Notes: a model not told the origin generated them from the sequence alone. 64,000 nucleotides of DNA from Phoronis australis (GCA_002633005.1 NMRA01000151.1:662400-726399); one strand, 5' to 3'; positions 16,395 to 62,189 are shown, counted from the stretch's first letter. Translations and numbers: made by a program.

Positions 16395-16727
16395 TTAAGC
16401 AGGATTCATTCTTTTATCAACCCATTCCAGTTCCCAATTAAGAATAGCTTTTCGTTGTTCCACATCCTTCGCCTCTTGTGCGAGCACCGTTTTTGGTTTC
16501 ACCTCCTCCAGGTCTTTCGGATCTCCCAATTCGTACGGCGTGAGAGCAGGCCTTGCCTTTTTAGGACAAACAGTACCAGCCCAGATCTCAGCAGAGTTGA
16601 CGATGGAGCTCATGATCATGTTCACTTTGATCTCGTATGCTCTTTTGTTTGTCGACTTCATCTTAGAAATCGTGGGAGATAAGTAGATCTTGATCACGTC
16701 GACATTTTTATTGTAGGTCATCATAAT
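16395..16727 (-). CDS. Multi-Hedge-domain gene, terminal coding exon (visible exon 13)
   Basis: atttcaatttcag acceptor, phase 0; IMMTYNKNVDVIKIYL...WVDKRMNPA*; 333 nt ending in TAA. Confidence 0.75.
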   Translation of the reverse strand: MMMTYNKNVDVIKIYLSPTISKMKSTNKRAYEIKVNMIMSSIVNSAEIWAGTVCPKKARPALTPYELGDPKDLEEVKPKTVLAQEAKDVEQRKAILNWELEWVDKRMNPA

Positions 16728-17578
16728 CTGAAATTGAAATTTTTATATTTTTGTGCCATTAGTATTTTGTTTCTGATAAAGTACTGAACTGCAGTGAAAA
16801 GTTGAATCATTCATTCAACTCAGTACCGTCGTTACTACAGGGCCCACTAGGGCACGTGCCCGGGAGCTCCATGACTACAGGGCACCCACGCCGATCTACG
16901 CTATAGTAAAAAAGTCAAATAATACCAGTCTTATGGGCTGTGTGAAGTACTGTATGTTCTACCTCAGTATTGCTTTTCATGAATTCCCAAGCCTATTGTC
17001 GGATTATGTTATGAAAAATGTAGTGTTTTGAAATTGAAACATATAAAAGGGCAAAAATCGTCCGTGCTCTAAATTTCATAAATAAATCAAGAAAATTCAA
17101 GTTTAGTTTGGATTTCATGTTTCTTTAATTAATAACATCACGCGTCTAGATCATTTTCGTGATTGAGTCGAATTCTTACCCTATGCTATTCAGAAGATTG
17201 TGGCTCTCAAGAGTGCATTTAAAAACACAAAGACTTCTCTATAATGATCGTGCCAAAGTCGAACCTATGTTCCATGCGTTTCCCTTTTTTCAATTTTCAT
17301 GTACGTTTTCAGCCGTTGTTCGTTCTCTAACCTATTTCATTTGCGTTTTGCTACTGACAAAATGCGGTTAGATTCTTGATTAAATGTCACCGACATAACC
17401 GTCTGTTTGTATTTCTTGTACAATCTCATCTCATGAGTCGGTGATGGTTGCATCACCTTCGTATTGATCTATCTGAAATGCGCTCTCTGTTTCGCATAAC
17501 GAAACAAAAAACAAATCAAAAGTGGCAAGAGTTTTGTCAACAACTCACCAAATGTGACGGTTTCCAGCCTCAACTTAC

Positions 17579-17766
17579 CTTTAACAGCTTTTTCATGATC
17601 CCCAGGTCTCCGTACTTTTCAATAAATACAGTCACGTTTCCTTTAGCATTCACGGCTAACATTTGATTTATCATTTCCAGAAGTGGCGACGGGTTTTTCT
17701 CACCGAACAGTTCAACCTCAACACTCCTATCCTTATCCGGCTTGTACCGCCCACGGACACTTGGAG
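17579..17766 (-). CDS. Multi-Hedge-domain gene, visible exon 12 (ADP-ribosyl-cyclase-like region)
   Basis: aaatttcag / gtaagt, phase 1 to 0; APSVRGRYKP...NPSPLLEMINQMLAVNAKGNVTVFIEKYGDLGIMKKLLK. Confidence 0.75.
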
Positions 17767-18559
17767 CTGAAATTTGGTAACAAGTTAAGCTGAACACATC
17801 TCATTTTGCATGAGTATCATCTGAAGGAAAGGGGGACTTTAAAAACAGACTGTAAATGACACTTTTATGGTTTTGTTATATTTTGGCTACAAAAAAGTAT
17901 TGTGGATAATTCTCCCTAGTTTACTTCTTGACCATATTCGGAATTCAGTTATAGTCAGACTCCAAAATCAAAACGCGAGTGTCGCTGACACTATACACGA
18001 GTCTACACGATTTCATCCATCATCTTGATATCGATTTTCACAAATTCGCTTTCTTTCTGATACAACGTATGCTCAATTTTAGTGCACGTTTGGGAATGCC
18101 GATGATACATCTAAAAATTCCCAAGAACTTAACAGCATAATCTCAGCGAGTAATAATTTCAACCACAGCATCGTGTTCATATGCGTCCACCGTGCGCAGC
18201 GGGTTCAGGGCAGATACAGAGGATAGTCGTTATTATAAATATTCCTATTAAATGGAGTAAGGTTAGTTGACTTGATAGCCTCTAGAGAGTGAAACAGTAG
18301 TCAGAAATACTCTTCTTAACAGGAACACGCCTTCAATATGTCATCGTCATTCTTTGGGGACACGGAAACAGACGACAAAGAATATATAAAGGAAAGACAA
18401 AAACTCCACTAGGAAACGCAGCTTAAGCAAACAGGGCAGATGTTGTCGGCTACGTGATTTTGACTTATTTTCCAACATTCATGATCAGCCATCAAAGAAC
18501 TTGAAAGACATCAAGATAATACGAAAAAAATTGCAACTAGGGGACTCAACAGCATCAGG

Positions 18560-23356: not shown

Positions 23357-23560
23357 CGAAAATGCCAAACAATTCTGTTTTTTCCACACACAGGAATTTT
23401 TTGTCGTCACAGGCAAACGAACTGACACTGTCGATGGCTGATTCAGTATTCATGTTGTATATGCTCAACTTGTCTAGATTCCCGAATGGGTTGCCAGAGT
23501 TGTTCTTGTAAAAGTTCAAGACGGTCATACAGTTCTCTACTTTCCTTGTCCAAACTGGCC
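23357..23560 (-). CDS. Multi-Hedge-domain gene, visible exon 11
   Basis: catcattccag / gtaagt, phase 1 to 1; PVWTRKVENCMTVLNFY...DKLSIYN...FACDDKKFLCVEKTELFGIF. Confidence 0.75.
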
Positions 23561-29691: not shown

Positions 29692-29894
29692 CTTCGTTAC
29701 ATTCATTGCAATCGTCAATGAAGCATCCCGTTAGTGCCTTTTTCGTTTTTGCGTAGTCTCGGTGACTGGTAGTAAATCGAGCTTTCTTTTTCAACATATC
29801 TTCCACCCTCTGCATTTCCTTCTTCCGGTAAGATTGCGTCTTCTTGCAAAATTCGGGAGAATACTTCTTCTTGGTGCAATCGCGGTCAGCAAAA
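29692..29894 (-). CDS. Multi-Hedge-domain gene, visible exon 10
   Basis: ttcccaacttccag / gtgaga, phase 2 to 1; FADRDCTKKKYSPEFCKK...RDYAKTKKALTGCFIDDCNECNE. Confidence 0.75.
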
Positions 29895-30713: not shown

Positions 30714-30810
30714 AATCCAGCATCGGTCTTAAAGTTGAAATAATAGTTCTCTTCTCCAAACTTGAAGGTACACGCTGTGGCGACATCAAGAGCAGAGATA
30801 GCCGGACCAC
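30714..30810 (-). CDS. Multi-Hedge-domain gene, visible exon 9
   Basis: ccatcttttag / gtaagt, phase 1 to 2; GGPAISALDVATACTFKFGEENYYFNFKTDAG. Confidence 0.7.
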
Positions 30811-32388: not shown

Positions 32389-32397
32389 AACACACAA

Positions 32398-38238: not shown

Positions 38239-39216
38239 TTAGTGTGACGACGATACTGTATGTCTTTGGATTACCATATCCAACACTGTTTTGACGCATT
38301 TCCGTATCTCGGGATAGGAATATGTGTATATAATTGGATTTAATGCCGAATTGAAGTAAGCGATGTTCGCAATGACGTAATCAATGTACTGAACAGTAGG
38401 TGTATAACTCTCCATTATCGGTGAGGTTTTTAGCACAACGACAGGCATCACGCACGCAGTGAAGGTGCCCAGAATTAAGAACGTCCCCTTTGCAATTTTG
38501 ATTTTATTCAACACTGCGTTGTTGGCCGGAGCTACTGCATTTCGCGATCGGCATGCCTTGTAAGCGACATATCCGTGACAAACATAACTGACGGACAATG
38601 TCACGCCACCACAAGTAATGGAAGTTATTATTTTCATCCTTTTTGGCAAGAGGTTGTAGTTACAGGTCTCCGTGAAGGGGTTATAAGGCGAGTCAGTGAT
38701 TGCTGGGATCATGCACGACGCACCAACAACACAGGTACTCAGGAGGCAACCGACAATAACAGCCAAAGTATTTCGTTTAGTACTTGAATCTGCATGGTGA
38801 AAAAGGGGAAAAGCTATGCTGATAACTCGGTCCAGTGAAATTAGCATGATGAAAACGTGGGACCAAATTACCGGTAAAACTGTGATAAAAACGAGGACCA
38901 TGCAACCTGATATAGTTGAATCCACCCCACTCGGCGTTCCACTGTCTGCCCACAACATTTGAACGACAACCTTGCGCCATATGTCAATAGGTATGACTAC
39001 CGCGCCGACCAAAAAGTCAGTTACTGCAAGGCCAACGATGAAAACGTTGTAAGACTTTTTCCAAAGTTTATACTTGAAAATGCAGTAAATCGTCAATCCA
39101 TTGCTGAATGATATGTAAAAAATCCAAATTATCTGCAGTGCAACAAAAGCTCCCTTAAAATACACAGACACTGTGTTGTCAAGAAACCAAATACTTGTAT
39201 TGTCTGACGAATTCAT
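38239..39216 (-). CDS. Intronless rhodopsin-family (class A) GPCR, 325 aa, orphan/divergent; nested in a host intron
   Basis: Seven hydrophobic segments; N-terminal sequons NSS/NTS; SNGLT, LAVTD, SLDRV, FTACVMP and NSALNPIIY motifs; ATG at 39216 in a GCCATG context. Confidence 0.93.
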   Translation of the reverse strand: MNSSDNTSIWFLDNTVSVYFKGAFVALQIIWIFYISFSNGLTIYCIFKYKLWKKSYNVFIVGLAVTDFLVGAVVIPIDIWRKVVVQMLWADSGTPSGVDSTISGCMVLVFITVLPVIWSHVFIMLISLDRVISIAFPLFHHADSSTKRNTLAVIVGCLLSTCVVGASCMIPAITDSPYNPFTETCNYNLLPKRMKIITSITCGGVTLSVSYVCHGYVAYKACRSRNAVAPANNAVLNKIKIAKGTFLILGTFTACVMPVVVLKTSPIMESYTPTVQYIDYVIANIAYFNSALNPIIYTYSYPEIRKCVKTVLDMVIQRHTVSSSH

Positions 39217-41766: not shown

Positions 41767-42274
41767 AACATACCACACCGCTGGTTCCATTCAAACATTC
41801 CACACTGCTGGTTCCATTTAAACATGCCACACTGCTGATTCAATTTAAACATCCCACATTCCTGGTTTCACTCAAACATTCCACACTGCTGGTTCTATTA
41901 AAACATTCCACATTGCTGGTTCCATTCAAACACTCCACACTGCTGGTTCCATTCAAACATTCCACACTGCTGGTTCCATTCAAATATTCCACACAGCTGG
42001 TTCCATTCAAACATTCCACACTGCTGGTTCCATTCAAATATTCCACACAGCTGGTTCCATTCAAACATTCCACACTGCTGGTTCAATTTAAACATTCCAC
42101 ACTGCTGGTTCCATTTAAACATTCCACACTGCTGGTTCCATTTAAACATTCCACACTGCTGGTTCCATTCAAACATTCCACACTGCTGGTTCTATTCAAA
42201 CATTCCACACTGCTGGTTCCATTTAAACATTCCACACTGCTGGTTCCATTTAAACATTCCACACTGCTGGTTCC
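41767..42274. repeat. 27-bp minisatellite, about 19 copies
   Basis: Unit CCACACTGCTGGTTCCATT(C/T)AAACATT. Confidence 0.97.
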
Positions 42275-42404: not shown

Positions 42405-43254
42405 CCACTGAATGGGACCTGAGCACTAAAATCGCTTACATGCCGCCGCGTGACTCCTTTGTCACACACCTGGCCCATTCTAAATAGCCCCAATACTATA
42501 GTCAAGTCCACAATAAACTTATCAAAGTTTGGCTCACCGGCCTGATCACTCGACGACGAACTGTCCTCCTCACTGGGTGTGTCGAAGTGGGCCTCCCACT
42601 ACTCAACATCGTTGGAGGGCTGTTTACTGGCTCTGGGCTGGAGACAACACCAGCGCAGGGCGAATCAGTTTTAGTTCCCGGAATTGCACGCTCTAGGGTA
42701 CGTTCGGAGGCACGGGTGTCAGTAGATGAATGGCCTATATTCACTCTAGACGCCACAGCTCGCGAGATTACTCGCTTCAAAAATACACTTCTCAGGGGTG
42801 GCAATGGAGCACAGCCGAAAAGCAACAGTGAAAGTACGACACCATTCTTCAGGGGTTGCTTTGCAGGTGCCTTCATCAACGACATGTCTCTGTCGTAATC
42901 CGGCGGCAGAAAATGCTTGCCATACACTCTGTAATTCTCAAGAGCTTTTTACGTTGTGTGGACGGGTAACGCTGCGTTCTTCACACGAACGAGCTAAGTA
43001 CGGTGGAGCGTGTCATCTTTCAGAAAGTGATGTAATGGCATACCCAAAGTGCGCGTGAGATGATAATTAGTAAACCCTAGTACGCAGCATTCGTGCGGCA
43101 TGCTGACTGACTTGTAAACAACACGCAAACGACGAATGAACTTATCACAACCGAGGTAAAAGAATGACTGACTCGATAACTCCCACAGTCAAACTATATG
43201 AAAACAAAATGGCGGGAAATTCTTAACCCCAAAACGTCACCTCCGGAGTAAAGG
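42405..43254 (-). mobile_element. Truncated copy of the THAP/Kolobok-like family seen at 59674-60919
   Basis: GKHFLPPDY THAP motif; shared blocks such as CACAACCGAGGTA...AATGACTGACTCGA...CACAGTCA.ACTATATGAAAA and AAGTCCACAATAAACTTATCAAA. Confidence 0.8.
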
Positions 43255-45391
43255 TCGAGGTTCGTGTTATTGAGGCCCGTTAGCTGTTTTGAAAGTGTGG
43301 GGGTCAGTTTTCGACTCCAGGATAACTGTTTTACATCGGGATTCCAAATCGATAGAACACCCCTGAGTACAGTAGATGTAAAATTCTGAAAGGCTCCCAC
43401 ACTCACGCACATACACATGCACACACACACACGCACACGCACACGCACACACGTAGGCACGCACCCTTATACACGAGCAAACGCGAACACGTACACAAAT
43501 TTAGTAATCACTTACACATCAACTATTTGCTTACGGTATTACGTTGTATTCTGTGGGGTGTAGCTATGTGACACCCCTTTATTTTCACTAACGTGTCAGG
43601 TTTATTTATTTATTTGTTGAAGCACGTACGCTATTGGTTCCATATGTGAGACTACTAATCGCATTGTCAAATGTATGAATAGTAAATAAATAATTACAGT
43701 CTCATATTTTCTATTGTATACTTGTATTGTGCTGCGTTGTGTTGTGTTGTGTTGTGTCAATGAAGTGGCATTTGTCTTTGACGATCTCCGGATTATATAC
43801 ATATATAACGATAAATGACGATTCCTGCAACAATTTGTTGATAACTGCTTCTGCGACTGTCATTTTGAAATTGAAGCGAAAGAATGCTGACGTTCATATT
43901 TATAGCGTTTGATTTCTGAGCAAAACACGCGAATTCCCTGTGTTGTGAATGTTGGTTTGTGTGGTCTCGTCTTTCGTGTTGTCTTGTGTGTTCGTGTTGT
44001 CGGTGGGTTTCCGTCAGTGGCCGGATGTTGTAAGTTCTAGTTTTGTCACGTGACTGGGGAATCGAGAGCGCTCTCTTCGTGTGGCTCTGCTGCACGCTGG
44101 ACGTCTGCGTTTGTGGGTCGTCATCTCAAGCGTGTATTCAAGCTTTCATATGAGTAAAGGTAAGCTGCACGAGAACCTGTGTATCAAGTCACAACACCTG
44201 GCAAACAGCGCCAAGAAATGTTAGAGTCACTTGTTATCACCCATTGCCAGATTGCATGAAACAGTCCCTAAATCGTAATCGTTTCGTTCCTTACTCACAG
44301 GTGTGCTATTTTTCTGCCATGTTATCTTTATTATGACCTCTTCTTTGACTATTGACATTTTCTCATAATATAACAAAAAACTCAGTCCTATATTCAGTCA
44401 AAATAATTAAGGACTTAAATTAGGGGTGTTGCATGAAAAGATTCCCGTTTATTTTCAAAATTATTGAGAATTCAACGGAGAGTTCACTCGATCTCGAATT
44501 GTATCAAAGCCAAAACTTGACTTAGTGATGAGAGTCAAACGGCATAAAAGGGACATTCAATGTTTTCACAAGCCCCGGCCGCAACTACGTAGTTGATTTA
44601 GGAAACTTAGTTGAATCCCTATTTGGGACTGTTTTATTCAACTGGGCGCGGTAATCAATCAGCAGAATTTCCCGCGTTTTGCACTTTATCAGTGAAGTTG
44701 TAATCGCTTGGGTGTACAGCGTGCGTATCATTCTGTGCGTGATTGGTGATCTTGGTTTCTCTGTTATCGTGTGGTCACCATGTAATTGGTCGTATTTGCC
44801 GTTGCCTCAGTGGAGACGAAGTCGTATGTATTTGTAAGTTATGTGACTTCAATAGGACGCCAGTAATGATGACTTTATCCCTTAACCTTATCATGAGCTT
44901 GGGATCATTTTTGTACTAACTTACACCTAACGCAAGATCTGACTTCCGCCCATTGAAATAACTGTCAAGACTGTTATATTCAATATACTCGTCGACGTTC
45001 CAATCTCAAAATGGATGCTAGCTGAGAGGAAGCAGAATAAAGTTTGAAAAAATAATGTTACCACTTAGCACTGCATCAATTGGAGCAGGCTTTCACACAG
45101 TGCAGGGCGACGCACCATAGGGGGCTGGGGGGCTATAGCCTCCACTTTTTTCAGTGCTAGGCCGCACATGGTTTATAGGCGGTGCACCACAGGGGGGGCT
45201 GAGGTGGCTTTAGCCCCCCACTTTTTTCAGTGCTGCACCGCCCATGCACACACGTGGCAAGTTTGGGGTAATTTGAAGAGTTGCCACTTGCTTAGAATAC
45301 CCTTGATCACACTCCATGTCTTTTTGGAGACTCATTTGTTTCTTTGTATTTGTTAAATTCTTGTGAAAGTACAAATTCCTTGCAGTTTTAC

Positions 45392-45593
45392 CTTGAACAA
45401 TCTTTAGCCATTTCTCTAGTTCAGTGATGACGTTTGCACTGCCGCCATCGTGAGTCCATATGTTGGCCTGCACCGAGGGAGGCGCGGTCCATGGCTTAGG
45501 GCGGAAGTCGAAATATAACTCGTTTCTGTGGACACCAATTCCCAGCATACGCTGTTGAGGATTAACTTGGTTGCCACAAATTTTAATGACAGC
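45392..45593 (-). CDS. Multi-Hedge-domain gene, visible exon 8 (end of the M15-like domain)
   Basis: gtttatttccag / gtaaaa, phase 0 to 1; AVIKICGNQVNPQQRMLGIGVHRNELYFDFRP...ELEKWLKIVQ. Confidence 0.82.
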
Positions 45594-47496
45594 CTGGAAA
45601 TAAACAACATAAATTCATTCACACAATGTCCAGTGTTATAGGTTGGCAGTAGCAAAACTTAAACTTTTCAAATGCCAATGTGCCGTGTCATCTAATGGAA
45701 TGAAACTCTTACAAAAGTAAATGATGCAAGTACATTAGGTCACGTGATGTGATCAAAAAGATGGCGGATTGAACGGGATAACCTACGCAACATATTCCAC
45801 GCCTCACTGAAAAAGATGATATTTACAAAAGTAAATGAGACACATTTGAATGTGCAGCCTACACAAGTTTAGAAACTTTTCGCAATAAAGACCATGAGCT
45901 CAGTTTTTATTTTTGTTATGATTTTTATAAAACCCTTCAGCGAGTGCGAGTGTCCAAATGGTCACGACGCGGCTATGATGATTTGGACCGGTATTCACAG
46001 ATAAAATGACTAAGTGGCCGAAACCTAAGCAATAACGCTGGTGCGTGGTCAGGAGAGTTCTGCATTTGATTCTTTGATGTTTCACTGAACATCGTTACCG
46101 TGGCAATTTCCTTCCAACGTTCGGGCACGTTACACACTCAACTGCTATTGCAAACCCGATCTTTTCTAGGTGAAGAGCAATGTCGTAACAAAACCTTTAG
46201 AGTAGTTCGACCTGAAAGGTTTTCCGGCTTTACCATCCAACGTGAAGTTGATGGACCTTCCGATAAGAAAGACCGACTGAACAAACGGGAAGGAGAGACA
46301 TAAAATGGAAGACGGGATTGCCATTACTTGAATTATTAGTACGCCATTAAAAATTGCAATGGTTATCAGCTTTTTAAGTGACCACCGTTCTCAATACCAC
46401 AGCAACAGTGTAAAATGGGAGTCGAAACATATATTTCGGAGAGTTGGATTTAACTTCTACAAGACGATTTAATTTTCCATTTTTCCATGTGGACGAACAT
46501 TTTTAGTAACGTGACGGCAATACAAATTTGCTTTTTTAAACCACTTTCATTTTGCCGTCACACTTCATTTGTTAAAACGATTGACAAGCGTTTTGACAAC
46601 GACGGTGCCGTGACTTAGATCGCAAAAGGGCAAATTGACCGGTCCTTTCCGACACAACTCCATCATTTTTCTTGCTCGTCTTCTCATCTGCTTCCGACAG
46701 TCCTTGCTTTAAGGAGAATGATAAGGCTTGATTTTGCAGACTGATTTTAAAATTCTTGTCTCAAAGGGCTTTTCTAGTTCCAAAACTTGAATATACATAC
46801 CAAATTAAATAATATGCGCCATGACATAATGTTTACCTCATTTCTTTATCAAACTAACGCGTTTTTTGAGCACAATTTTGTACCTCGGCCGAGATCTGAA
46901 AATCATCGACTATTCCTGTCTATTTCCATGACCTGAGTTCCTTGTGCATCAGTTGAGGAACGATTCCTGGATGACGGCCATGTTGTCCTTGAAAACGTTT
47001 TGATATGATCGTGAGCGTAAAACCGTTGTTATTTGTTTTGTTTTCGATTCTCATTTTGGTTCTTTTTACACAAATTTGATTATACATTGTCCAAATTTTA
47101 TCTGTTCTTTGCATATGACGAGTGGTATTTAAAGTGTAAATTGCAAGGTCTCAACCAATCTGAACAACAATATGCTCTAAATTCGTGTTTATAATTATTA
47201 TTGCTATATTCTTAACATTAACTGAATTGTACGTCGCTATAAAAAGTTATTTACATATTTGTTGCCGTGGCGTTGTAACGCCATTGTTGTAACGGAAAAT
47301 AGAAACGGCGCCATTTTCCTTCGTTACACATCTGTGACGTGGTGTTGGGGAACACAAAGAAAACAATATGGATCCCAGTGAGTACAGCAGCGTAGATGAA
47401 GAATATTTTGAAAGATACAGGGAGGGTCAGGTGGAGTTTTCAGACGATTCTGACGTTTCGGATGTGGAGGAGGAGGCGACAGACCCCATAGGAACN

Positions 47497-50400
47497 GACT
47501 TTGCCGAGTTGAGAGACCTGTTAGTGCGTGAGCAGTACGTTAACACCTGTACTAAAGACTTGGCCTTGTTCCTGCGAGAGCGGACACCCAAGACTGTTCC
47601 AGAGATGGTGGGCTTAGCAGAGAGGTATATTGAGGCCCATGGAGTGGATATAACGAGCACTCAGTCAAAGAAATCCCAAGAACGACCAGTCAAGACAGAC
47701 AACCAGAGAGTCGATCAGAAGAAAAATGACCTCGCAGAGGAAACTAAAAGGTGTTTCTTCTGTCACAAAGCTGGACACCTGGCTAGAGACTGTCGGAAGC
47801 GGACACAAGGGATGCAATACCAAAAGTCAGCAGCGGTCAACCACCGAGGTTCCCAGAGCAAAGAGGATTCGGTGAAGCGTGCTAATCCTGAACGCGCCTT
47901 CAAAGGAATGCTGCGTCTGAAGGAGGGGTATGTTGGCACGAAGAAGGTCTCAGTGTTGAGAGACACAGGCTGCACAACCATTGTGGTTCGATCTAGTTTA
48001 GTCGAACCAGGAGATATGACCTGCCGGAAGTGGTCATGCGAGTTGGCGGACTCTACCAAGAGATGGCTGCCTGTCGCAAAGATCAACATCAAGACACCGT
48101 ACTACACAGGAGAAGTGTTTGCGATGTGTATGGAGCGTCCAGTGGCCGATTTGATTATCGGGGACGTGCCTAGTGCCTTGGACCCAGGCGATGTTGAGCG
48201 ACAGCAGAGAGCAACAACTGCCAACGGGGACAATACAGGCAATAACCTTGTGGGGGGTCTGAAAGATGACTCTCAAAAGGGTACGACTTCCCAAGAGAAG
48301 AACTCAGTGACCTCAACTCTAGAGGAAGAAGAGGTGGCCGACAAGTCGGTGGAGACAGATCCTGATGAATCCAGCGAGGAAGCGGTAGCGGTGACTACCA
48401 GGGCTCAGGAAGAGCGAGAAAAATCGGACATTAAACCGTTAGCTGTGTCCCCAACCATACAAGAAATGGGACTAAAGCAGTTCAAAGAAGCCCAGCATGA
48501 AGATTCATCAATGAAAAAGTTGTGGGAGCAAGCTGAAGCCAAGGTTAAGCGACAGACCAAAAGCAAGGTGTCATACGTGATGGAGATTCAACGAGGAATA
48601 CTCTATCGCATGCTCAAAAAGAAAGATGGTGACGAGGTGAAAGAAGTTGTCGTGCCGAGTAGTTTACGGAAGTCCGTGATGAGGCTCGCTCATGAGTCTA
48701 TACTCGGTGGACACCTCGGTGTTAGGAAGACAACTGACCGTATCACCACAGCAATTTCTATTGGCCAGGAGTGGCATCAGAAGTGACCCGATTCTGCAGG
48801 TCATGCGACATCTGTCAGAAGACAATCCCGAAAGGTCGAGTGACCAAGGTACCCCTGGGAGAGATGCATTTGATGGAGGAGCCTTTCAAAAGGATCGCGA
48901 TTGATCTGATTGGCCCTATAGCTCCAGTTTCTGAGAAATGAAACTGATACATTCTCACGGTGGTAGATTTGGCTACCAGGTATCCAGAAACAGTGGCGCT
49001 ACCGAAGATTGAGACAGAGCGTGTGGCTGAAGCATTATTAGAAGTCTTCAGTAGAGTACGGTTCCCACGAGAGATCCTGAGTGATCGTGGAACGCAGTTC
49101 ACAGCGGAACTGATGAAGGAGGTCAGCAGGCTTGTGAGTGCAAAGCAGCTGTACACGACCCCTTACAATCCACGCTGTAACGGGCTCTGTGAGAGAATCA
49201 ACGGTGTTCTGAAGGCCATGCTGAAGAAAATGTGTCAAGAAAGACCGGAGGATTTGGGACCGGTATCTGCCAGCTGTCCTATTTGCTTACCGAGAAGTCC
49301 CGCAATCAAGCACAGTATTTTCACCCTTTGAGTTGTTATAGGGCAGGACAATAAAAGGTCCGATGCAAATACTGAGCGAACTCTGGACAGGGGAAGACAG
49401 CAACGACGTCCGTAATACTTACCAGTATGTCTTCGAACTCAGGAACCGCTTAGAGGAGACTTGCGAGTTGGCTAGAAAAAACTTGTATGTGGCACAGGGT
49501 ATTCACAAGCATTACTATGACAAAAAGGAAAGAGATAGGCAGTTTCAAGTGGGACAAAGAGTGTTGGTATTACTTCGCACAGATCATAACAAGCTTACTC
49601 TGCAGTGGAAGGGGCCTCACGAAGTCACAGAAAAAGTCAATCGTATGGACTACACAATCAACATGAACGGCAAGATTAAGATCTTCCATGCCAATCTGTT
49701 GAAGGCGTATCACAAACGCGAAGATGACAACACCACAGGTAAAGATGAAGCGATCGGTGCGGTGTTAATTGAGGAGTGTGTGACTGACGAAGCGACCCTT
49801 CTTGATGAAGGCGGTTTAGAGCTTCGACCGGAAGTTCACAGTGAAACCTACAAGGACGTTAAGCTGTGCGATTCCTTGACGTCAGAACAACGTGAACAGG
49901 TACTACGGCTTCTATATGATTACCGTGGCATTTTTACCAACCAGCCTGGCGAGACCGATTAGGCCAGCCACGTCATCGAGTTGACAACAGAACAACCAGT
50001 GAGAGTGAGACCACGTCAGATGCCATACACCACTCAGGACTTAGTGAAGAAGGAAGTGCAGGAGATGTTATAGATGACCATCATTGAGCCTTCGACTTCA
50101 GCTTACAGCTCTCCTGTAGTGTTGGTGGCTAAAAAGGATGGCACCACAAGATTCTGTGTTGACTATCGACGGCTGAATGCAGTGACCAAGTTTGATAACG
50201 AGCCCATGGGTAACCCAGAAGCTATTATGGTTAATCTGCATGGTCAACGTTTTTTCTCGAAGTTCGACTTCACGAAGGGCTACTGGCAAATTCCCATGGA
50301 TGAGGCTAGCAAAGAGAAGACCGCATTTGTGACTCCAGGAGGTTGTTACCAGTTCTGCAGAATGCCATTTGGCTTGGTGAATTCAGCGGCCACGTTCAAC

Positions 50401-51675
50401 AGGATGATGAGAAAAATGCTAGCAGGCTCAGGTAATATCGAGCAGTATGTCGATGATGTGCTACTCCACACTGTCACCTGGGAGGAACATCTCCATACCC
50501 TGAGGGACTTGTTTCAAAGGGTAAAGCAAGCAGGCTTGACAGTAAAACCGTCAAAGTGCAGTATCGGATATCCAGAGGTGGAGTTCCTTGGACATCAGGT
50601 TGGGACGAACCAGATAGCTATGGATGACCAAAAGCTAATGAAGGTCCAGGATGCACCAACACCATCTACAAAAACTAAGGTACGGTCATTCCTAGGACTT
50701 ACAGGGTACTACCGAAAGTTTGTGCTCAACTACACACAGATAGCCACACCGTTGACGGATTTGCTGAAGAAGGGCCAACCAAAGAAAGTCGTGTGGAGTG
50801 ATATTCATGACCGGGCAATCAGGAAGCTAAAGCAAGCGCTTGGAAGTAGCCCGATCCTACGAGTGCCTGACTTCAGCCAAAGATTTATTGTCAGGACGGA
50901 CGCGTCAAACAATGGTTTAGGGGAAGTCTTACTGCAGGAGTTTGACGATGGGATATTCCCTATTGCATATGCCAGCCGGAAGCTTAAAGAGAGCGAGCGG
51001 CATTACTTTACAGAAGAGAAAGAGTGTTTAGCAATAGTGTTTGCTGTTAAACGTTTTCAGTTTTATCTATACGGGACAGAATTCGTGGTGCAAACAGACC
51101 ACAAACCACTGGTATATATTCAGCGTTGTAAGATTAAAAGTCCCAGGGTTATGCGATGGGCTATAGCGCTGCAGAATTATAAATTCCATGTGGAGGATAT
51201 CCCTGGAAAATGTAACGTCGGTGCAGACTATTTAAGTCGATTAGCAGAGCCTGTAAGTCAAGGAGCACTTTAGCTGCGGATACAGCAGTAGGTTATGTAT
51301 ATATATGCCAGGTGATTTTGTGTTAAAAAATTATAGAGTAATTTTCTCTTTGGCAGGGGTGTGTTGTCAGAATATGGTCTGACAGTATTTTTAGTTGTAT
51401 TGTTTTGTTTTATTCTGTTTGATTGGCATGACCCCTGAGTTAAGTACAGTGATGATGTAATTTGTTTACTACAAAATAGTGTGGAACTTTCTAGAAGACT
51501 GAGGTCAGAACAGTGGTGATGTAATTTGTTTACTACAGTATAGTGTGGAACTTTCTAGAAGACTCTAGCATGACAGTGATTAATGCAGTCTGGAATATTC
51601 TAGAGACTAGTACATGTTTGTAGAATGATTGGGTAGGTTCCAGAAAGTTCTGGTATGTGCTTGAATTGATGAAAN
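47497..51675 (+). mobile_element. Gmr1-type Ty3/gypsy LTR retrotransposon (gag-PR-IN-RT-RH), inactivated; probable 3' LTR from about 51365
   Basis: CCHC knuckle CFFCHKAGHLARDC; protease LRDTGC; integrase HHCC plus IDLIGP/SDRGTQF/NGLCERIN and WKGP; RT YVDD; RNase H TDAS and TDHKPL; several stops and frameshifts; G-rich tract before TGTCAG; bounded by single Ns at 47496 and 51676. Confidence 0.93.
50074..51273 (+). CDS. RT-RNase H portion of the gypsy pol (pseudogenised element)
   Basis: RFCVDYRRLN, DFTKGYWQI, MPFGL, YVDD, TDAS, EKECLAIV, TDHKPL, ADYLSR. Confidence 0.9.
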   Translation: MTIIEPSTSAYSSPVVLVAKKDGTTRFCVDYRRLNAVTKFDNEPMGNPEAIMVNLHGQRFFSKFDFTKGYWQIPMDEASKEKTAFVTPGGCYQFCRMPFGLVNSAATFNRMMRKMLAGSGNIEQYVDDVLLHTVTWEEHLHTLRDLFQRVKQAGLTVKPSKCSIGYPEVEFLGHQVGTNQIAMDDQKLMKVQDAPTPSTKTKVRSFLGLTGYYRKFVLNYTQIATPLTDLLKKGQPKKVVWSDIHDRAIRKLKQALGSSPILRVPDFSQRFIVRTDASNNGLGEVLLQEFDDGIFPIAYASRKLKESERHYFTEEKECLAIVFAVKRFQFYLYGTEFVVQTDHKPLVYIQRCKIKSPRVMRWAIALQNYKFHVEDIPGKCNVGADYLSRLAEPVSQGAL

Positions 51676-53097: not shown

Positions 53098-53707
53098 CTT
53101 TCCAATTGTTATCAATTCAGTTTCGCCTGTCGTTCCCGTGGCCATTTCAACAATTACGGCGTGACCAGACTGGTGACGTATTTTCTCTTCATCGTGCTTT
53201 GTCCCTTGATTTTTATAATTGTCCAACTGATTTCTGTATCCAGCTGTCACCCGGATATTAAGACCGCCTTTCGCTATTAGATTGCCGACGCACTCAACGA
53301 GGTACTGGTCAATCCTAACGAAACGCTCCTCGGTGAAATTTTTAAGTGTTAAGTTGCCGACAAGTTTGGTTTTTTCGTAAATTGACGAATCAAAAAACTG
53401 GCTAATGTACGGTTCCTTTTTAGGATCAATTTTTCCACACCATGGAATGTTCTCATCGCATCTGCCTGGATAGGCGTACTTGCCGTTGACGGCGAAAAAG
53501 CCCGGTCTTGACGCTTGTAATTGCGCCGTTGGGAATGGCACAACAAATGAACGAGGTTTGTTTTCTCTTTTGACGCACACCCAAATGACCTGAGGCTTAG
53601 GAGCAGGAGGATACTCGACGAAGTCAAAGCCGGCACATTGTGCAAGCTGGCCTAACTGAATGAGTTTACCTTTGCCATCATCTCCCGACAAGTCGAACCA
53701 TAGTGCC
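53098..53707 (-). CDS. Multi-Hedge-domain gene, visible exon 7 (end of Hedge repeat 2 and most of the M15A-like domain)
   Basis: ttctgattgtag / gttagt, phase 2 to 0; ALWFDLSG...LGQLAQCAGFDFVEY...IWVCVK, then LVGNLTLKNF...RIDQYLVECV...IRVTAGYR...RHQSGHAV. Confidence 0.88.
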
Positions 53708-54364
53708 CTACAATCAGAAACTCGAAGCTACAGAGTTCCAATTTGACGGGAAATAATTTATGGTGTCTCAATTAACACTTCGCAGGTTTGCATTCGGCAA
53801 AACAGTCGATGAACATAATCAGTGTTCTGCGAGAATAAATGGTTTTCCCATGCAAATTACACATTTTCTCTCGCTGTATATACACCTACAGAATACAACA
53901 CTGATGTCGCATTGCATTACTCAACTGCAATACTCTTCTTACAGAGAAAGCTTGTGAATCGAAGTGACAACTCAGTCGTATTGATGTACATACATTGTCT
54001 GGGCAAAGTGCCGAACGTCCTACACAGGGTTTAGGAGATAACAAAGCGGACGCCGGACACCCCGACCATCCGGATATAGCCAGGTTCGGTCGAAAGTAGC
54101 TACATGTACACCGAATGCGACGCTTCAGCAAACAATTCTCAAACAACACAAACAAGAGGTCTGCACAGTGTACTAGCAGACGGTCGTGGCCATGTAAAAC
54201 TAGTAGACGGCCATGGCCATGTACCGTAAAACTAGCAGACGGCCATGGCCATGTACAACTTCCGTAGTGACTGACTGTGTCTTTAAGAATTAGAGATAAT
54301 GCAATGCCGTGATGTGTTGTTGATCGCGAACAACTCACGCAATACTTCTGAAATGTGTACTTAC

Positions 54365-54511
54365 TGTGCCGTGCGATGGTGAGAAAATTCGTTTTTAAAA
54401 GTTCCCCACTTGAAACCAGCAGTTGCCGTAGGCTCTTCAAACGCAAATTTGACGATCAACTTGTTGGCTCCTCCCCACTTTTCTTCAACGAGTTTTGCCA
54501 AACGACGGAGT
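54365..54511 (-). CDS. Multi-Hedge-domain gene, visible exon 6 (Hedge repeat 2 core; missed by the ORF track)
   Basis: ggtttttag / gtaagt, phase 2 to 2; LRRLAKLVEEKWGGANKLIVKFAFEEPTATAGFKWGTFKNEFSHHRTAQ. Confidence 0.88.
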
Positions 54512-54771: not shown

Positions 54772-54945
54772 CTGAAAGCTAGCCTGTGCGTCATCACACG
54801 ATCTCTACAACGTTTGGCAGGAGGTACATTTGCACTTCCGGTGTGGACTCTACAGTCGATGCAGCTTCTGCCCGCCATCCCGCACCAGGCGTCGTTGCGC
54901 TTTGGGTTTTCGAAGATGACATCGTTATACGGATAGTAATATAAT
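54772..54945 (-). CDS. Multi-Hedge-domain gene, visible exon 5
   Basis: tttctctctcttcag / gtagac, phase 2 to 2; LYYYPYNDVIFENPKRNDAWCG...CIDC...CRDRVMTHRLAFR. Confidence 0.88.
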
Positions 54946-57199: not shown

Positions 57200-57359
57200 C
57201 CTTTGAACTGTCGCTTGTGGTAGCGGGTGATGGGGATCCCTATCTTGCCGCAGGCAGTGTCCATTGTTGCTCCTTTAGGCCGTTTCATCCCTCTAAATAG
57301 TTGTGGAAAAAACGTGAAGAATTTGTTGCACTCGGCCAAAGAGACTCCGGATGCGTATG
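57200..57359 (-). CDS. Multi-Hedge-domain gene, visible exon 4 (GC donor; alternative in-frame acceptor at 57383)
   Basis: tttgtctttcag / GCAAGT, phase 1 to 2; ...PKGATMDTACGKIGIPITRYHKRQFKG parallels Hh [17 protein letters not shown]; 5' boundary uncertain. Confidence 0.75.
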
Positions 57360-58673: not shown

Positions 58674-59021
58674 TTGAATTAATCAAAGTTACAAAGTGAG
58701 TGTTCGCCGGGGTCACTCCAGTTATCCACGAACCATGCTTTACACCAACATGCACGTAATCTGCGTAAATCTTGACGTAGTCAAACTCCGCCATGACAGC
58801 CATCTGACCAAGTTTGCGCATTAGTCCTGCATCCTTATCTTCACTCGGCATTGTGGAGAATTTGTAATCCATTTCGTCATCCGTTAGCTTTCTTGAGATG
58901 GCTATCTGGGCGGCTCTACCTTCTTTGTGGATGGAATTCCATGCAAATTTTCCCCAGTTGCTTCCCTGAATTGGGTGCAGCTCAGTCGGCTCGTCAAATG
59001 CGTTAATAACCATCAGCTTCC
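58674..59021 (-). CDS. Multi-Hedge-domain gene, visible exon 3 (Hedge repeat 1, C-half)
   Basis: cttttcaag / gtaagt, phase 1 to 1; KLMVINAFDEP...SIHKEGRAAQI...LGQMAVMAEFDYV...YVHVGVK versus Hh KLRVTEGWDED...SLHYEGRAVDI...LARLAVEAGFDWV...HIHCSVK. Confidence 0.92.
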
Positions 59022-59205
59022 CTTGAAAAGACCATGATGTGAGTGTAAGCGTTTCCTACATTGAGTTGCGCACAAAAATAATTTTGTGCTGAATTAGGGG
59101 GCCATTTACTACTGATATTTATAGCATAAAAAATCAACTCCTTGCAAAGCGTTCCTAATTATGGAAAATATTCGGAGTTAGAGCTGTAAAAGTGTAGCCA
59201 CTTAC

Positions 59206-59426
59206 GGTTTTTCAGTCGAGGGTCTTTTATCACTAGTTCTGCTAGAGATTTGATTGCCTCCGACATGTCTAACGACATGTGACGATCAGCACACATTTTG
59301 GGCTTTGTATACCCGGCGACATCCTTGCGACAGTCCGCACAGGGGTAGTTCAACGATCCACACCATTTCTGTGTATGCTCCTCGTTTTTGAACAGGATCT
59401 TGTTCGATTTCAGTTGGATCATTTTT
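59206..59426 (-). CDS. Multi-Hedge-domain gene, visible exon 2 (Hedge repeat 1, middle)
   Basis: ttttatttcag / gtaagt, phase 2 to 1; ILFKNEE...CADRHMS...IKSLAELV versus Hh IIFKDEE..GADRLMT...LNALAISV. Confidence 0.9.
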
Positions 59427-59646
59427 CTGAAATAAAAATCAGTTTGTTTGCTTGATAATGGTTTGAGAGAGCAGAAACGCCATCAATTATGGCAGTGCCG
59501 CAGAATTACAAGAAATGGAATGCTTTGGTTTGATTTTAAATATACATCTTCACTGGGATTACGGTATTTCAGAAATTATCAGCTACGACTTAGTCAAGTT
59601 TGTACGGCAGCTGGTGGTGAGTATGTCCACTAAGAAATTATCATGC

Positions 59647-61301
59647 TTTGTGTGAACTTGTAATCCTGCTTAAAGGCGAAAGCAACCTTTTTTCATGTCA
59701 CTTTTAGCAAAAATAAGGTTCGGTGATTATCACAGACACATTTTTCACTTTATTACAGCTTTTCGTAATTTGATTAATTTCTCCTCCTCTACTCCGGAAG
59801 TGACGTTTTGGGAGGCAAGAGTTTCGCGCTAATTTCTTTTCATAATAGTCTGACTGTGAGAGCTGTCGAGTCAGTCATTGTTCTACCTCGGTTGTGATAA
59901 GTTTGGTCGTCGTTTGCTTTTGTTTACAAGTCAGTCAACATGCCACGGTGTTGCTGCGTGCCGGGATGTACTAATTATCGTCTCACACGCGCTTTGGGTA
60001 CCTTGCGTCGCTTTCCGTACTTGGCTAGCTCGTTCATGTGAAGAATGCAGCGCTACCCGTCTACATAACGTACACAGCAGTGGAGGGTTACCGAGTGTGT
60101 GGCAAGCATTTTCTGCCGTCAGATTATCGATGACAGATATGCACGCTGAATTGATGAAGGTCCCTGCGAAACAACGCTTGTTGATTCCCGGCAGTGCCCG
60201 TCGCCAACCCCGAGAAGTGCGTTTTTGAAGCGAGAAGCCTCGCGAGCTGTGGCCACTATATATAGTGACTGGAGGCACTTCATCTACTGTCACTCGTGCC
60301 TCCGAACGTACCCCATTGCGTGCAATTCCAGGAAGTAGCAGTGATTGGGCGATGTTGAGTAGTAGGAGTGAATACAGGCCCAGTTCGACACCCAGTGAAG
60401 AAGACAGTTCGTCATCCAATGAACAGATCGGTGAGCCTAAGTTTGATAAGTTTATTGTGGACTTGTATTGGAGCTATTTGGAAGGTGCCAGGTGTGTGGT
60501 GAGGGAGTCACACGACAGGATGTAAGCAGTTTGGGTGCTCAGATCACCCTTCAGTGGTAGTGTGTCGCGGGACACTCGGGCAAGTGGGACAATTCTTCCT
60601 CTGTATGTGAGACGATAATGAGTACACCCCAGTACGCAGCAACAGCGTGGCATGTTGACTAACTCGTAAGCAAAAGCAAACGACGACCGAACTTAGTCAC
60701 AACCGAGGTAGAACAATGACTGACTCGACTGCTCTCACAGTCAGACTATATGAAAAGAAATTGGCACGAAATTCTTGCCTCCCAAAACGTCACTTCCGGA
60801 GTAGACGACGAGTAATTAATTAAATTACGAAAAGCAGTAAATAAGTGAAAAATATGTCTGGGATAATCAACGAACCTTATTTTTGCTAAAAATAACATGA
60901 AAAAAGGTTGTCTTCGCCTTTAATCTCAAGATCGCGTATGCCTGAACTTGGAATTGAATATTTATTTGAGCAATCAGGTGAATTTTTTTGTTCAGCATAA
61001 AGAATTTTGTAATTATTGGCCTCCTGATCACCCATTTTCTCCTTTAGCGTAACTTATGTCAAAGAGTCGGAGGAACATGTGAATGATTAAATCAATTATT
61101 GTTTGGTGAATAAGATCGCCAATAGTTGAAAAGGGTTGGTTAAACTTTATGTTATTTTGTCAACATGTAATTTCATTTAGTGCAGTGCAAATTTTTATAA
61201 ACGTGAACGTGTTTCTTTAAGTGAACTTGTCAAGTTGCCTCGTGTATTCCAAGTTCACGCATACGCGATCTTGAGATTAAGCAAGATTCCAAGTTCACAA
61301 A
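59647..61301. mobile_element. Older ~400-bp MITE whose left TIR is split by the Kolobok insertion
   Basis: Rejoined left arm TGTGAACTTGTAATCCTGC-TTAA-TCTCAAGATCGCGTATGCCTGAACTTGGAAT matches the reverse complement of 61246-61301. Confidence 0.8.
59674..60919. mobile_element. Kolobok-like non-autonomous element with ~310-bp TIRs, TTAA TSD and THAP remnant
   Basis: TTAA|AGGCGAAAGCAACC...GGTTGTCTTCGCCT|TTAA; MPRCCCVPGCTN at 59940 and RVCGKHFLPSDY at about 60092. Confidence 0.88.
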
Positions 61302-61982
61302 CCGTCACGTGCACACGATTCAGCCTCTGCGAAAGACTACGTGTTCAAGACTAACATGGAATATATGCAATACCAGGGTTACGTAAGAGTAATGCCACTG
61401 CCTCCTCAGCATCTTTGCATTGGTCACGCTTTGTCAAAACCGGGTATCCACTGATAATAAAGAACAGCGCCAAACCCTACGTCAGCACTCAAACTAGTTT
61501 TGTCACGTAAAAGATTGTGTTTTGTGGTTAATTTGCCCACGCACGCTTGAATTTATTCAATAGTACTGACGTCTAATTATGTGGTTGAACAAACCAGCAT
61601 CGTGGTTTCCTTTTGTTTTCTTTTCTTTTGCCTAGGTGCTTGGTCCGTCCATTGCAGATGGCCACAAGCTAAATACTGCTCTGTATATTAAGCAAAGTTG
61701 ACAAACGTCAAACTATCAATACTATTAAGACCAACGGTACTAATGAGCACATGTGAGTGCCCATGGGCTGTTATGCTTTAGTTGCCAAATTTTAATTCAT
61801 TCTTATACGGGACGTCTTTAAATACAATCTAAGTGACACTGGGGTTATAGCAGGAATATATTGACGTGAATGACATCTTGTCGTTCAACTGAAACAGTTA
61901 TACGATTTGAACTGCGACTAACTATTTTACGGTTTAATTAAGATTACTGCTTTGTCGATCAGTTCTACACTAGTTTGCTTAC

Positions 61983-62189
61983 GAGAAGAATTCATTGTAG
62001 CTCCTCTCCACCTGTCGGATGATTTTACCGCACGCTTGCTCAGGTGTCTTGTCCGCATTTAACTCTGCGGCACCAGTCAATTGTATAAAGCAACAAGTCG
62101 TCTGGTCCACAGGGTCTTGGCACAACGCAAATTCAGTCTCTGGTCTAAGCTGGGTATTTGTAGCCATAGCAGGGTACAAATTGCCCCAC
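61983..62189 (-). CDS. Multi-Hedge-domain gene, first visible exon (upstream exons lie outside the window)
   Basis: ttcttatccacag / gtaagc, phase 2 to 2; ...DKTPEQACGKIIRQVERSYNEFFS parallels exon 4 and Hh [22 protein letters not shown]. Confidence 0.85.

Follow-up and report, generated by a model that had tools for sequence, protein, structure and literature searches.

How the Hedgehog signalling domain arose from bacterial cell-wall peptidases, and which ligand its cleft accommodates, are open questions (PMC6027127, PMC8052667). Divergent, Hint-less and non-catalytic Hedgehog-like domains, called Hedglets, have been described from lophotrochozoans, amphioxus and echinoderms (Jägers & Roelink 2021, PMC8052667). 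They were defined on a segment of about 105 residues, with no architecture given, and are said to lack calcium ligands (PMC8052667); in a literature search, the term was found only in that paper and its preprint.

Here we analyzed a minus-strand gene in a 64,000-nucleotide stretch of DNA (the window), for which the original prediction was a giant Hedgehog-related protein with the order Hedge-Hedge-M15-like-CD38-like and no Hint domain. This order is supported by Pfam, by profiles and by the structural model of a relative, such that two Hedgehog-type domains and an M15A-type domain are neighbours in one animal protein. We found no description of the Hedge-Hedge-M15-CD38 order in the literature; the novelty claimed for it is lowered somewhat by the Hedglets, which had already been named in passing. 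In addition to what was predicted, all four domains apparently lack catalytic residues.

Gene structure and transcription

The window contains the last 1,030 codons of a single real, intact animal gene. Its 13 exons in the window, all on the minus strand, are each preceded by AG and followed by GT, with one GC donor (exon 57200-57359). As predicted, they join in compatible phase into 3,094 nt without an internal stop, and the exon ends and frame were confirmed. The result is one open frame of 1,030 residues, including 30 Cys, with its sole stop at 16395-16397; the other two frames contain 67 and 60 stops. Exon 1 in the window (61983..62189; aa 1-69; AG/GT ends) encodes the end of an upstream domain and the start of Hedge repeat 1. 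It opens at a splice acceptor and thus the gene runs past position 64000; aa 26 of the chain pairs with residue 477 of relative P0005 in a BLAST alignment. One 14.6-kb intron contains another gene.

As an independent control, a profile built from 24 relatives only (see below) was compared with the 1,634 stop-to-stop frames (at least 25 aa) of the window. The top 11 matches are 11 of the 13 exons (E 5e-24 to 0.01), 10 of them in profile order; the remaining one, exon 6, matches repeat 1 and not its own repeat. Exons 1 and 4 have chance-level scores (E 1.5 and 7.4), yet lie at the expected profile positions, and no additional family exon is prominent among the 1,634 frames. The joined chain scores 617 bits against the profile and aligns continuously over 922-1,000 residues, spanning the exon 8/9 joint, with 20 of the 24 relatives (E 1e-73 or better). 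For the remaining relatives, P0038 ends early and three oyster paralogs align as two pieces flanking an insert. Furthermore, among eight single-exon fragments from other genomes, four start at profile position 849-850 and four end at 1104, and in several cases these limits are near the exon-7 acceptor and exon-8 donor of the window.

RNA was examined above position 45392 by reading 18-19% of three raw runs. Intron 59427-61982, between exons 1 and 2, is spliced (four reads in X1, one in X2), while none of the other six introns of this stretch is among the 15/20 joints listed, so that the predicted junctions are borne out in one case. Bins 53396-54059 and 58708-59371 contain reads in one orientation only, as minus-strand RNA predicts. 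Depth is low and coverage patchy, exon 6 having none at the 95% cut-off; RNA support consists of strand and the one junction.

It is highly improbable that the chain is an artefact, i.e. two joined genes or a decaying copy. Such an artefact would fit the confinement of junction reads to the part above 45392, the presence of another gene inside the 14.6-kb intron and the long branch of the window copy in the family tree. Against it, the relatives are colinear from end to end, the 3,094 nt have neither stop nor frameshift, all ten Cys of the C-terminal domain are retained, and RNA is stranded and spliced, with two of the three listed fixed RNA differences in exon 7 being synonymous. The exons below 45392, which had been considered a possible separate gene, are placed in the same gene by the colinear relatives. 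Since the chain aligns end to end with 24 full-length proteins, it is one gene.

Relatives, likely secretion and processing

An HMMER scan yielded the 24 full-length relatives, which have 26-31% identity to the window chain. Sixteen species of bivalves and gastropods account for the 20 named ones, and relatives occur in clams, mussels, oysters and snails. Their public names are only ‘uncharacterized’, ‘hypothetical’ or ‘Hedgehog N-terminal signalling domain-containing’, and no literature was found for six LOC ids of the family. Two of 13 HMMER matches, P0002 and P0012, were dropped as bacterial repeat proteins with a chance match over 40 residues. Word-seeded homolog searches with exons 7 and 3 gave no match, and exact-pattern scans, of low sensitivity, gave no relative in metagenome and prokaryotic genome contigs. 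In abalones, two family copies lie on one contig. The window protein diverges more than any other member and has neither the pocket His nor the cleavage site of the tail; its row is a long branch in a quick version of the tree, and its placement was not used. A conserved first Trp of the chain was rejected as an alignment artefact.

The relatives carry about 450 upstream residues, namely: a signal-like peptide, a propeptide, a furin-type site and a beta-rich domain. From these, we estimate a full protein of about 1,400-1,500 residues, which is large but not giant. The predicted further Hedge repeats upstream were rejected on the same architecture, as HH_signal occurs once or twice, but never three times, behind the beta-rich domain in all 23 relatives scanned. 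That domain, which could set the function, has no Pfam or PDB match; a TBP match (E 0.0025, in one of two sequences) was rejected as below the cut-off.

The N-terminus is hydrophobic in 17 of the 24 relatives, 22 of 24 have R-x-[KR]-R after about 150 residues, and a basic site precedes the tail in all 23 that extend that far. Many relatives also have convertase sites on both sides of repeat 1, and there is no membrane segment (no 19-residue window above 1.75). These sequence features indicate that the product is likely secreted. A furin-type convertase would remove the propeptide, and the tail would be released; in some relatives, cleavage may also occur between the repeats.

The insert of the three oyster paralogs has T4 gp5 lysozyme as all of its top six PDB matches (E 0.27-1.3, weak and not significant). 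It lacks the catalytic acids of that enzyme, and Pfam and PHROGs detect nothing in it.

Hedge repeats

The chain contains an internal repeat (aa 33-226 vs. 275-450; z=32), whose score is reached by none of 500 shuffles. Repeat 1 continues from exon 1 into exon 2 (59206..59426; aa 70-142; profile E 8e-17), which has the WCG-C-C-C loop of the family and calcium-site residues E84, E85 and D116, and its second half is in exon 3 (58674..59021; aa 143-258), which matches Pfam HH_signal at E 3.6e-4 and 20.7 bits, slightly below the 22.1 cut-off. Exon 4 (57200..57359; aa 259-311), with the GC donor, encodes a linker and the start of repeat 2, as placed by the profile (E 7.4, at the expected position) and by an unbroken BLAST alignment. 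The Cys loop of repeat 2 is in exon 5 (54772..54945; aa 312-369; profile E 2e-14), its middle in exon 6 (54365..54511; aa 370-418; profile E 6e-4 on the corresponding part of repeat 1), and its end in exon 7 (53098..53707; aa 419-622; HH_signal E 0.094).

All 23 scanned relatives contain HH_signal (E 4e-9 to 8e-25), and the family profile matches Shh, Ihh, Dhh and fly Hh in the PDB at E 1e-15 to 1e-19; exon 3 by itself matches Desert hedgehog at E 0.67. As judged by these comparisons, the results show two Hedge repeats. Hint gave no match in the 23 relatives (E<=0.1) or the 13 exons (E<=1). Among the expected Pfam families, HH_signal was thus recovered in the relatives and just under the cut-off in exon 3, whereas Peptidase_M15_3 and Rib_hydrolayse were not detected.

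In repeat 1 of the window protein, His174 and His233 are retained and Gln181 replaces the zinc-binding Asp; none of the 25 repeat-1 sequences has the complete His/Asp/His set of Hedgehog, which consists of H-x6-D and a second His. The last His position of repeat 2 is Trp, Glu or Asp, and the four Cys of its loop are invariant (25/25). The Shh calcium ligands E90, E91, D96, E127 and D130 (numbering from PMC8052667) are Glu or Asp in 18, 17, 17, 23 and 24 of 25 repeat-1 sequences, respectively, and the D132 position is Pro in 19. Most repeat-1 sequences have five of the six acids and the window protein has four, while repeat 2 has lost them. A large Cys loop is inserted within the calcium site of repeat 1, and this repeat may bind calcium.

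The main rival explanation builds on this site. The calcium site of Hedgehog binds CDO/BOC, and the protein could be a calcium-dependent modulator of the Hedgehog pathway, with repeat 1 as a secreted decoy for Ihog/CDO/BOC, Hhip, Patched or proteoglycans and the other domains as spacers or anchors. Retention of five Shh ligands as acids (17-24 of 25 sequences), the profile matches to Hedgehog proteins and the convertase sites beside repeat 1 are in its favour. However, an internal domain lacks the N-terminal Patched-binding residues and both lipid attachments, D132 is mostly Pro, the Cys loop interrupts the site, repeat 2 has lost the acids, and the conserved M15A and CD38 folds are left unexplained. 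We consider this reading rather doubtful; if binding to Hedgehog partners is true, the protein would be an unrecognised pathway modulator.

Predicted M15A-fold domain

Exon 7 also encodes most of the M15A-fold domain, as indicated by ESM Atlas and the fold of the relative; the exon has stranded RNA reads. The domain ends in exon 8 (45392..45593; aa 623-689; profile E 7e-8) and is followed by a Cys-containing linker in exon 9 (30714..30810; aa 690-721; E 0.01), which matches profile positions 1102-1134, after 1038-1096 for exon 8. The fold is predicted from an AlphaFold model of relative P0005 (pLDDT 89, pTM 0.82, rigid two-domain packing), to which the window protein has mean identities of 27% and 33% in the two modelled domains. 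Zn DD-peptidase 1LBU ranks fourth among 48,161 chains, with Z 9.5 over 117 aligned residues at rmsd 2.5, while ShhN scores lower (Z 6.7), and models of phage M15 peptidases match at E 1e-6, in agreement with the M15-like assignment first made. With exon 7, ESM Atlas gives Peptidase_M15_3 clusters with a score of 0.92 (PF08291 in 43-47% of members); folded alone, this exon has a pLDDT of 31. Sequence profiles reach no M15 peptidase in PDB, Pfam or NCBIfam, and PHROGs give a single endolysin match (E 0.099).

The Tyr-Arg-x4-Asn motif of M15A is retained as Tyr576-Arg577-x4-Asn582 in the window protein and across the family (Tyr 25/25, Arg 23/25, Asn 25/25). The complete zinc His/Asp/His set is found in 0/25 sequences: two ligand positions are Phe or Tyr (23/25 and 25/25), with the third position being Tyr in 25/25 (Tyr649 in exon 8).

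A structural scaffold of matrix, mucus or shell would make other use of such folds, as mere building blocks of a disulfide-bonded, calcium-binding polymer. This is consistent with a secreted, Cys-rich product that loses a propeptide at a furin-type site, with the beta-rich N-terminal domain, with the rigid packing of the model and with the adhesive role considered for Hedgling (PMC2362128). We find it unlikely, because the invariant polar residues concentrate in former active-site motifs, RNA depth is low, and ‘hedgehog signaling domain’ is absent from the shell-proteome literature among the matches listed.

Predicted CD38-fold domain

The last four exons encode a domain that is entirely missed by standard annotation, namely: exon 10 (29692..29894; aa 722-789; profile E 5e-5) for its helical start; exon 11 (23357..23560; aa 790-857; E 7e-13) for the first strand, with C-x-E-x-T at the TLEDTL position (Glu849); exon 12 (17579..17766; aa 858-920; E 1e-18) for the helix expected to bear the catalytic Glu, which is absent; and exon 13 (16395..16727; aa 921-1030 and stop; E 2e-13) for its end and a conserved W-E-x-x-W tail. 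CD38 leads the 48,161 chains (Z 11.4), followed by Aplysia cyclase (Z 11.2) and CD157 (Z 10.4); in these three, 184-207 residues are aligned at rmsd 3.6-4.5. Over the structure comparisons, Z is 10.4-12.2, and Foldseek matches CD38 at E 7e-6. A CD38 fold is thus predicted, again from the model of the relative. Sequence profiles reach no CD38 in PDB, Pfam, PHROGs or NCBIfam, and ESM Atlas gives no usable match for exon 13.

No Glu is found anywhere in the catalytic helix after N-cap Asp911 (0/24). The CD38 residues were mapped from spacing and secondary structure rather than by superposition; near the catalytic position, Asp occurs in six abalone proteins. The position of CD38 Trp189 is Leu or Ile in 25/25. 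Retained in the pocket are the aromatic residue (25/25), His (23/25) and Glu (24/25), with a His-Glu spacing of 12 as in bovine CD38. The catalytic Glu, which is described as essential and found in all CD38 molecules (PMC6368836), has apparently been lost.

The domain is the best conserved part of the protein (44% median identity), and five columns are acidic in 24-25 of 24-25 rows. Together with the retained half of the substrate pocket, this would suit an active ecto-NADase/cyclase with a relocated nucleophile (invariant acids E874, E907, D911 or E967, or tail E1019) and tail cleavage as a switch. Such activity is distinctly improbable given the missing helix Glu, the replaced stacking Trp and the requirement for the Glu in CD38. 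A predicted complex of the tail with the M15A and CD38 part scored 0.00, and its alignment was not used.

Possible function

Since catalytic residues are apparently absent from all domains, targets are probably bound, not cut. Our preferred reading, with a probability of roughly 0.4, is a secreted, convertase-processed pseudo-enzyme scaffold or receptor that likely binds the bacterial cell wall. The disarmed M15A and Hedge clefts would bind peptidoglycan stem peptides, and the CD38-like domain would bind a nucleotide without turnover. Zinc-less PGRPs, in which a cell-wall hydrolase fold is used as a receptor, are the precedent. A cell-wall target is favoured by the peptidoglycan-peptidase fold of three of the four domains (PMC6027127), by the lysozyme-like insert, albeit weak, of the oyster paralogs and by the two-copy contig of abalones. 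It is weakened since the cleft could be blocked by Phe/Tyr at the M15A zinc positions, function does not follow from a shared fold, and repeat 1 retains Hedgehog calcium ligands, as the modulator explanation expects; the same cleft in Shh is a protein-binding surface. If cell-wall binding is true, the family would form a new class of pattern-recognition proteins in invertebrates.

An undescribed secreted sensor of molluscs and probably other lophotrochozoans, made of four disarmed enzyme domains that have bacterial cousins, with peptidoglycan-gripping Hedgehog and M15A clefts, seems unlikely to us in this full form. Its CD38-fold module, gated by the furin-released tail, would bind or turn over NAD-type nucleotides, and in oysters the disarmed lysozyme would add to the grip. 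If true, an animal Hedgehog-fold protein would act in the ancestral role of the fold, engaging the bacterial cell wall. The family is kept in farmed abalone, oysters, mussels and clams, making these functions directly testable.

Comparison with known systems

As originally predicted, the protein is neither Hedgehog nor Hedgling; Hint/Hog, VWA, cadherin and a membrane segment are all missing from it. With Hedgehog (Shh/Ihh/Dhh; PF01085 + PF01079) it shares homologous signalling-type domains, here two (E 1e-19), and most repeat-1 calcium ligands, but its repeats are not N-terminal, the zinc set is broken and there are three extra domains. Hedgling (Nematostella, sponges, choanoflagellates) is likewise a large extracellular protein with Hedge but no Hog and an incomplete zinc motif; its only Hedge is N-terminal and precedes VWA and cadherin (EGF), whereas here two Hedge repeats are internal and Pfam matches no VWA, cadherin or EGF in 23 relatives.

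The last domain shares with CD38/CD157/Aplysia ADP-ribosyl cyclase (PF02267) a predicted two-lobed fold (Z 10-12 over some 200 residues), a C-x-E-x-T motif where TLEDTL lies, and the pocket aromatic, His and Glu. It differs in its identity (about 12%, with no Pfam match), in the apparent loss of the catalytic Glu and stacking Trp, in its fusion behind three peptidase-fold domains and in its extra C-terminal tail. Peptidase M15A/Zn D-Ala-D-Ala carboxypeptidase (1LBU; phage M15 endolysins) shares the predicted fold and the Tyr-Arg-x4-Asn motif; in contrast, Phe/Tyr replace zinc ligands here, in a secreted animal protein. Non-catalytic PGRPs, with an unrelated amidase-2 fold, are alike by analogy only, in the proposed logic of a hydrolase fold minus zinc ligands as a receptor.

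As in Hedglets, which are from lophotrochozoans and basal deuterostomes, a non-catalytic Hedgehog-like segment without Hint occurs here; the named relatives are molluscs. By eye, both have one Cys ahead of the ADR motif and another ahead of the AG motif, and both have an insertion following WDE. In the seven listed sequences read as Hedglets, however, the segment is at residues ~270-420, compared with ~500-680 for the first repeat here; their C-x-x-R is not directly preceded by the WCG-x6-C-x2-C loop typical of both repeats here, and they are said to lack the calcium ligands largely retained in repeat 1. The listed oyster sequence is also unlike the oyster members of the present family. Hedglets are the nearest named group and, on this comparison of sequences by eye, probably a sister family.

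An intact gene conserved among molluscan relatives

The 13 minus-strand exons originally predicted at 16395..62189 hold at their coordinates: each is preceded by AG, and every donor is GT except for a GC at 57200 (exon 57200-57359). Joined, they give 3,094 nt and a single open frame of 1,030 residues with its stop at 16395. Exon 1 (61983-62189) starts at a splice acceptor without a start codon, so the gene extends past the window. As a control, a profile built from the 24 relatives alone was run over 1,634 frames of the window. Its top 11 matches are 11 of the 13 exons, and no additional frame stands out; exons 1 and 4 score at chance level, yet lie at the expected position.

Of the 13 matches in a HMMER scan with exon 7 (53098-53707), three are full-length proteins and eight are fragments of a single exon; the other two, both bacterial, were set aside as chance. 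A profile of three relatives yielded 22 proteins of 1,056-1,744 residues. Including P0013 and P0014, the set comprises 24 relatives; of these, 20 are named, representing 10 species of bivalves and 6 of gastropods, and four are unnamed. As this search started from mollusc-related words, the distribution need not mean that the family is absent elsewhere. The window chain aligns unbroken with 20 of the 24 across 922-1,000 residues; P0038 ends early, and for three oyster paralogs the alignment is split in two by an insert. This end-to-end alignment places the exons below 45392 in the same gene, as had been proposed. At 26-31% identity to the relatives, whose median among themselves is 37%, the window protein diverges more than any other member of the family. 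Its residue 26 pairs with residue 477 of P0005, the relative used for modelling below; thus, some 450 residues are missing upstream of the window chain.

RNA support for the predicted junctions is partial. In three runs, of which 18-19% each was read, splicing of the first intron is seen in 4 + 1 reads, and exon 2, exon 3 (58674-59021) and part of exon 7 are covered in one orientation only; the remaining six introns of the exon 1-8 stretch are absent among the joints listed (15 of 20; reads compared above 45392 only). We consider it very improbable that the chain is an artefact.

Other elements in the window

An intronless rhodopsin-family GPCR frame (38239-39324, minus strand; 7tm_1 E 7e-22) is nested in the 14.6-kb intron between exons 8 (45392-45593) and 9 (30714-30810), on the same strand as the gene. 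Intron 7 holds a Gypsy-like retrotransposon in several frames (47338-51273, plus strand; RT, RNase H and integrase core), overlain by RNA reads of its family; no LTR pair was seen in the window self-comparison. At 62715-63774, within the intron that precedes exon 1, a 515-bp stretch occurs on both sides of an N gap (99.2% alike), probably an assembly artefact. An interspersed repeat is present twice, at 42405-43259 and 59670-60987 (71-83% alike); the second copy contains a 319-bp inverted repeat and is covered by many RNA reads. A THAP-domain frame (6185-6535, minus strand; E 5e-10) is likely a DNA-transposon remnant. Minisatellites occupy 41767-42274 (27 bp x 18.8) and 11925-12199 (29 bp x 9.5).

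Two Hedge repeats without a complete zinc set

The presence of two Hedge repeats is borne out by the internal repeat of the window chain (z=32), by Pfam HH_signal in 23/23 relatives scanned (P0014 left out), and by a family-profile match to Shh in two stretches (E 1e-19). HH_signal occurs as two stretches in 18 relatives, as one in five and as three in none, and in relatives the upstream region holds other parts; by this architecture, the further repeats once suspected there are not expected. In each of the two repeats, a Cys loop is inserted ahead of the ADR motif. Profile scans give no Hint match, in line with the original prediction, and no VWA or cadherin match either.

Following the Shh numbering in an excerpt of PMC6027127, a complete His/Asp/His zinc set in repeat 1 is found in 0/25 sequences (24 relatives and the window protein), the window positions being His174, Gln181 and His233. 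Five of the six Shh calcium ligands are kept in repeat 1 by most members (18, 17, 17, 23 and 24 of 25), four of six positions in the window protein, and the ligands are lost in repeat 2. That repeat 1 binds partners of Hedgehog in a calcium-dependent manner is conceivable but doubtful.

The oyster-type paralogs P0041, P0042 and P0044 carry an insert of ~300 residues inside repeat 2 (~830-1170 of P0044), consisting of a Cys-rich part and a weakly lysozyme-like part. For a 186-residue part of one insert, the six best PDB matches are all T4 gp5 lysozyme, although weak (E 0.27-1.3) and with the catalytic acids outside the alignment; Pfam and PHROGs return no match for it. The insert may be a disarmed lysozyme, which we offer as a lead rather than a result.

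Predicted M15A-type and CD38-type folds

Since sequence profiles fail beyond the Hedge repeats, the last 550 residues of P0005 were folded from a 31-row alignment (pLDDT 89, pTM 0.82), giving a predicted structure of the relative rather than of the window protein. Compared with 48,161 solved chains, its top three matches are porcine CD38 (Z 11.4), Aplysia ADP-ribosyl cyclase (Z 11.2) and CD157 (Z 10.4), over 184-207 residues at rmsd 3.6-4.5 (model residues ~280-530). Fourth comes 1LBU, a Zn DD-peptidase (Z 9.5 over 117 residues at rmsd 2.5; model 36-227), and then ShhN (Z 6.7). Foldseek gave CD38 at E 7e-6 and phage M15 peptidases at E 1e-6, and a second structural comparison reached Z 12.2. 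Independently of the model, exon 7 of the window protein itself is linked to Peptidase_M15_3 clusters in the ESM Atlas (0.92). In the window chain, the predicted ranges are ~aa 480-680 (M15A-type) and ~aa 745-1000 (CD38-type). The M15-like and CD38-like domains proposed earlier therefore stand as predicted folds of a relative, but not as profile matches.

The M15A-type domain likewise has a complete His/Asp/His zinc set in 0/25 sequences: Phe/Tyr occupies the first ligand position in 23, and Tyr the third in all 25. Tyr-Arg-x4-Asn, which we take to be the M15A motif, is kept (Tyr 25, Arg 23, Asn 25 of 25). CD38 residues, with roles from portions of PMC6368836, PMC2785692 and PMC3329556, were mapped from their spacing and the secondary structure rather than from a superposition. 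So mapped, the Trp125 position is aromatic in 25/25, the pocket His is present in 23/25 (Ser in the window protein), the TLEDTL position is Glu in 24/25, the Trp189 position is Leu/Ile in 25/25, and the helix expected to carry Glu226 has a Glu in 0/24. The catalytic Glu is thus predicted to be missing, and a cryptic NADase appears improbable; six abalone rows have an Asp near that position. These rows are two paralogs from each of three species (P0014/P0027, P0026/P0029 and P0006/P0028), with the Asp six residues past the CD38-helix N-cap in all six; the two members of each pair are on a contig of identical length, two pairs have adjacent or near-adjacent locus numbers, and the pairs are likely tandem duplicates.

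Upstream region, tail and proposed function

By hydropathy alone, 17/24 relatives have a hydrophobic N-terminus. The N-terminal ~150 residues end in R-x-[KR]-R in 22/24, and the upstream ~450 residues also include a domain of beta-rich look with no Pfam or PDB match. No membrane segment was seen in the window chain or the relatives. A basic site precedes the conserved W-E-x-x-W tail in 23/23 relatives reaching it. Two features mark the window protein (aa 941-955 and 991-1005; exon 13, 16395-16727, minus strand): a basic insertion of 13-15 residues in its CD38-like domain, and the absence of the cleavage site that these complete relatives have before the tail. The product would be secreted and trimmed by furin-type convertases. 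A structural matrix role for such a protein is unlikely.

The gene is intact, the domain order is conserved and the zinc sets are broken; the protein probably acts through binding rather than catalysis. We favour the bacterial cell wall as its ligand, with a probability of roughly 0.4, because three of the four domains have, in part by prediction, a peptidoglycan-peptidase fold, the third resembles bacterial enzymes more closely than it does Hedgehog, residues on the binding side persist longer than catalytic ones, and the single lineage-specific addition may resemble a disarmed lysozyme. Zinc-less PGRPs are a precedent for a hydrolase-type fold that binds the cell wall.

Comparison with known families

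The family is real and conserved and its architecture undescribed, while its function is a proposal. No description of this domain order was found in listings of the open-access literature, a scope outside which lie subscription journals and most supplements; proteomic tables could list such proteins as uncharacterized. The available parts of PMC3417536 and PMC3482391, which derive the ADP-ribosyl cyclase domain from bacterial toxin systems, do not mention a comparable fusion. As predicted, the family fits neither Hedgehog, from which it differs in lacking Hint and a complete zinc set, nor Hedgling, as outlined in part of PMC2362128, in lacking VWA, cadherins and an anchor. Lophohog, in excerpts of PMC9695228 and PMC5103448, is the reverse case, with a Hog domain behind a different N-terminus. 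Among groups with a name, the Hedglets come closest. The portion of PMC8052667 consulted gives them only as segments of ~105 residues, Hedgehog-like but divergent and non-catalytic, from lophotrochozoans, amphioxus and echinoderms, with a distribution its authors term enigmatic. In seven sequences read as Hedglets, the segment lies at residues ~270-420 and lacks the Cys loop of the present family; compared by eye, they thus look like a sister family. Hint-less, non-catalytic Hedge proteins are a kind already glimpsed.
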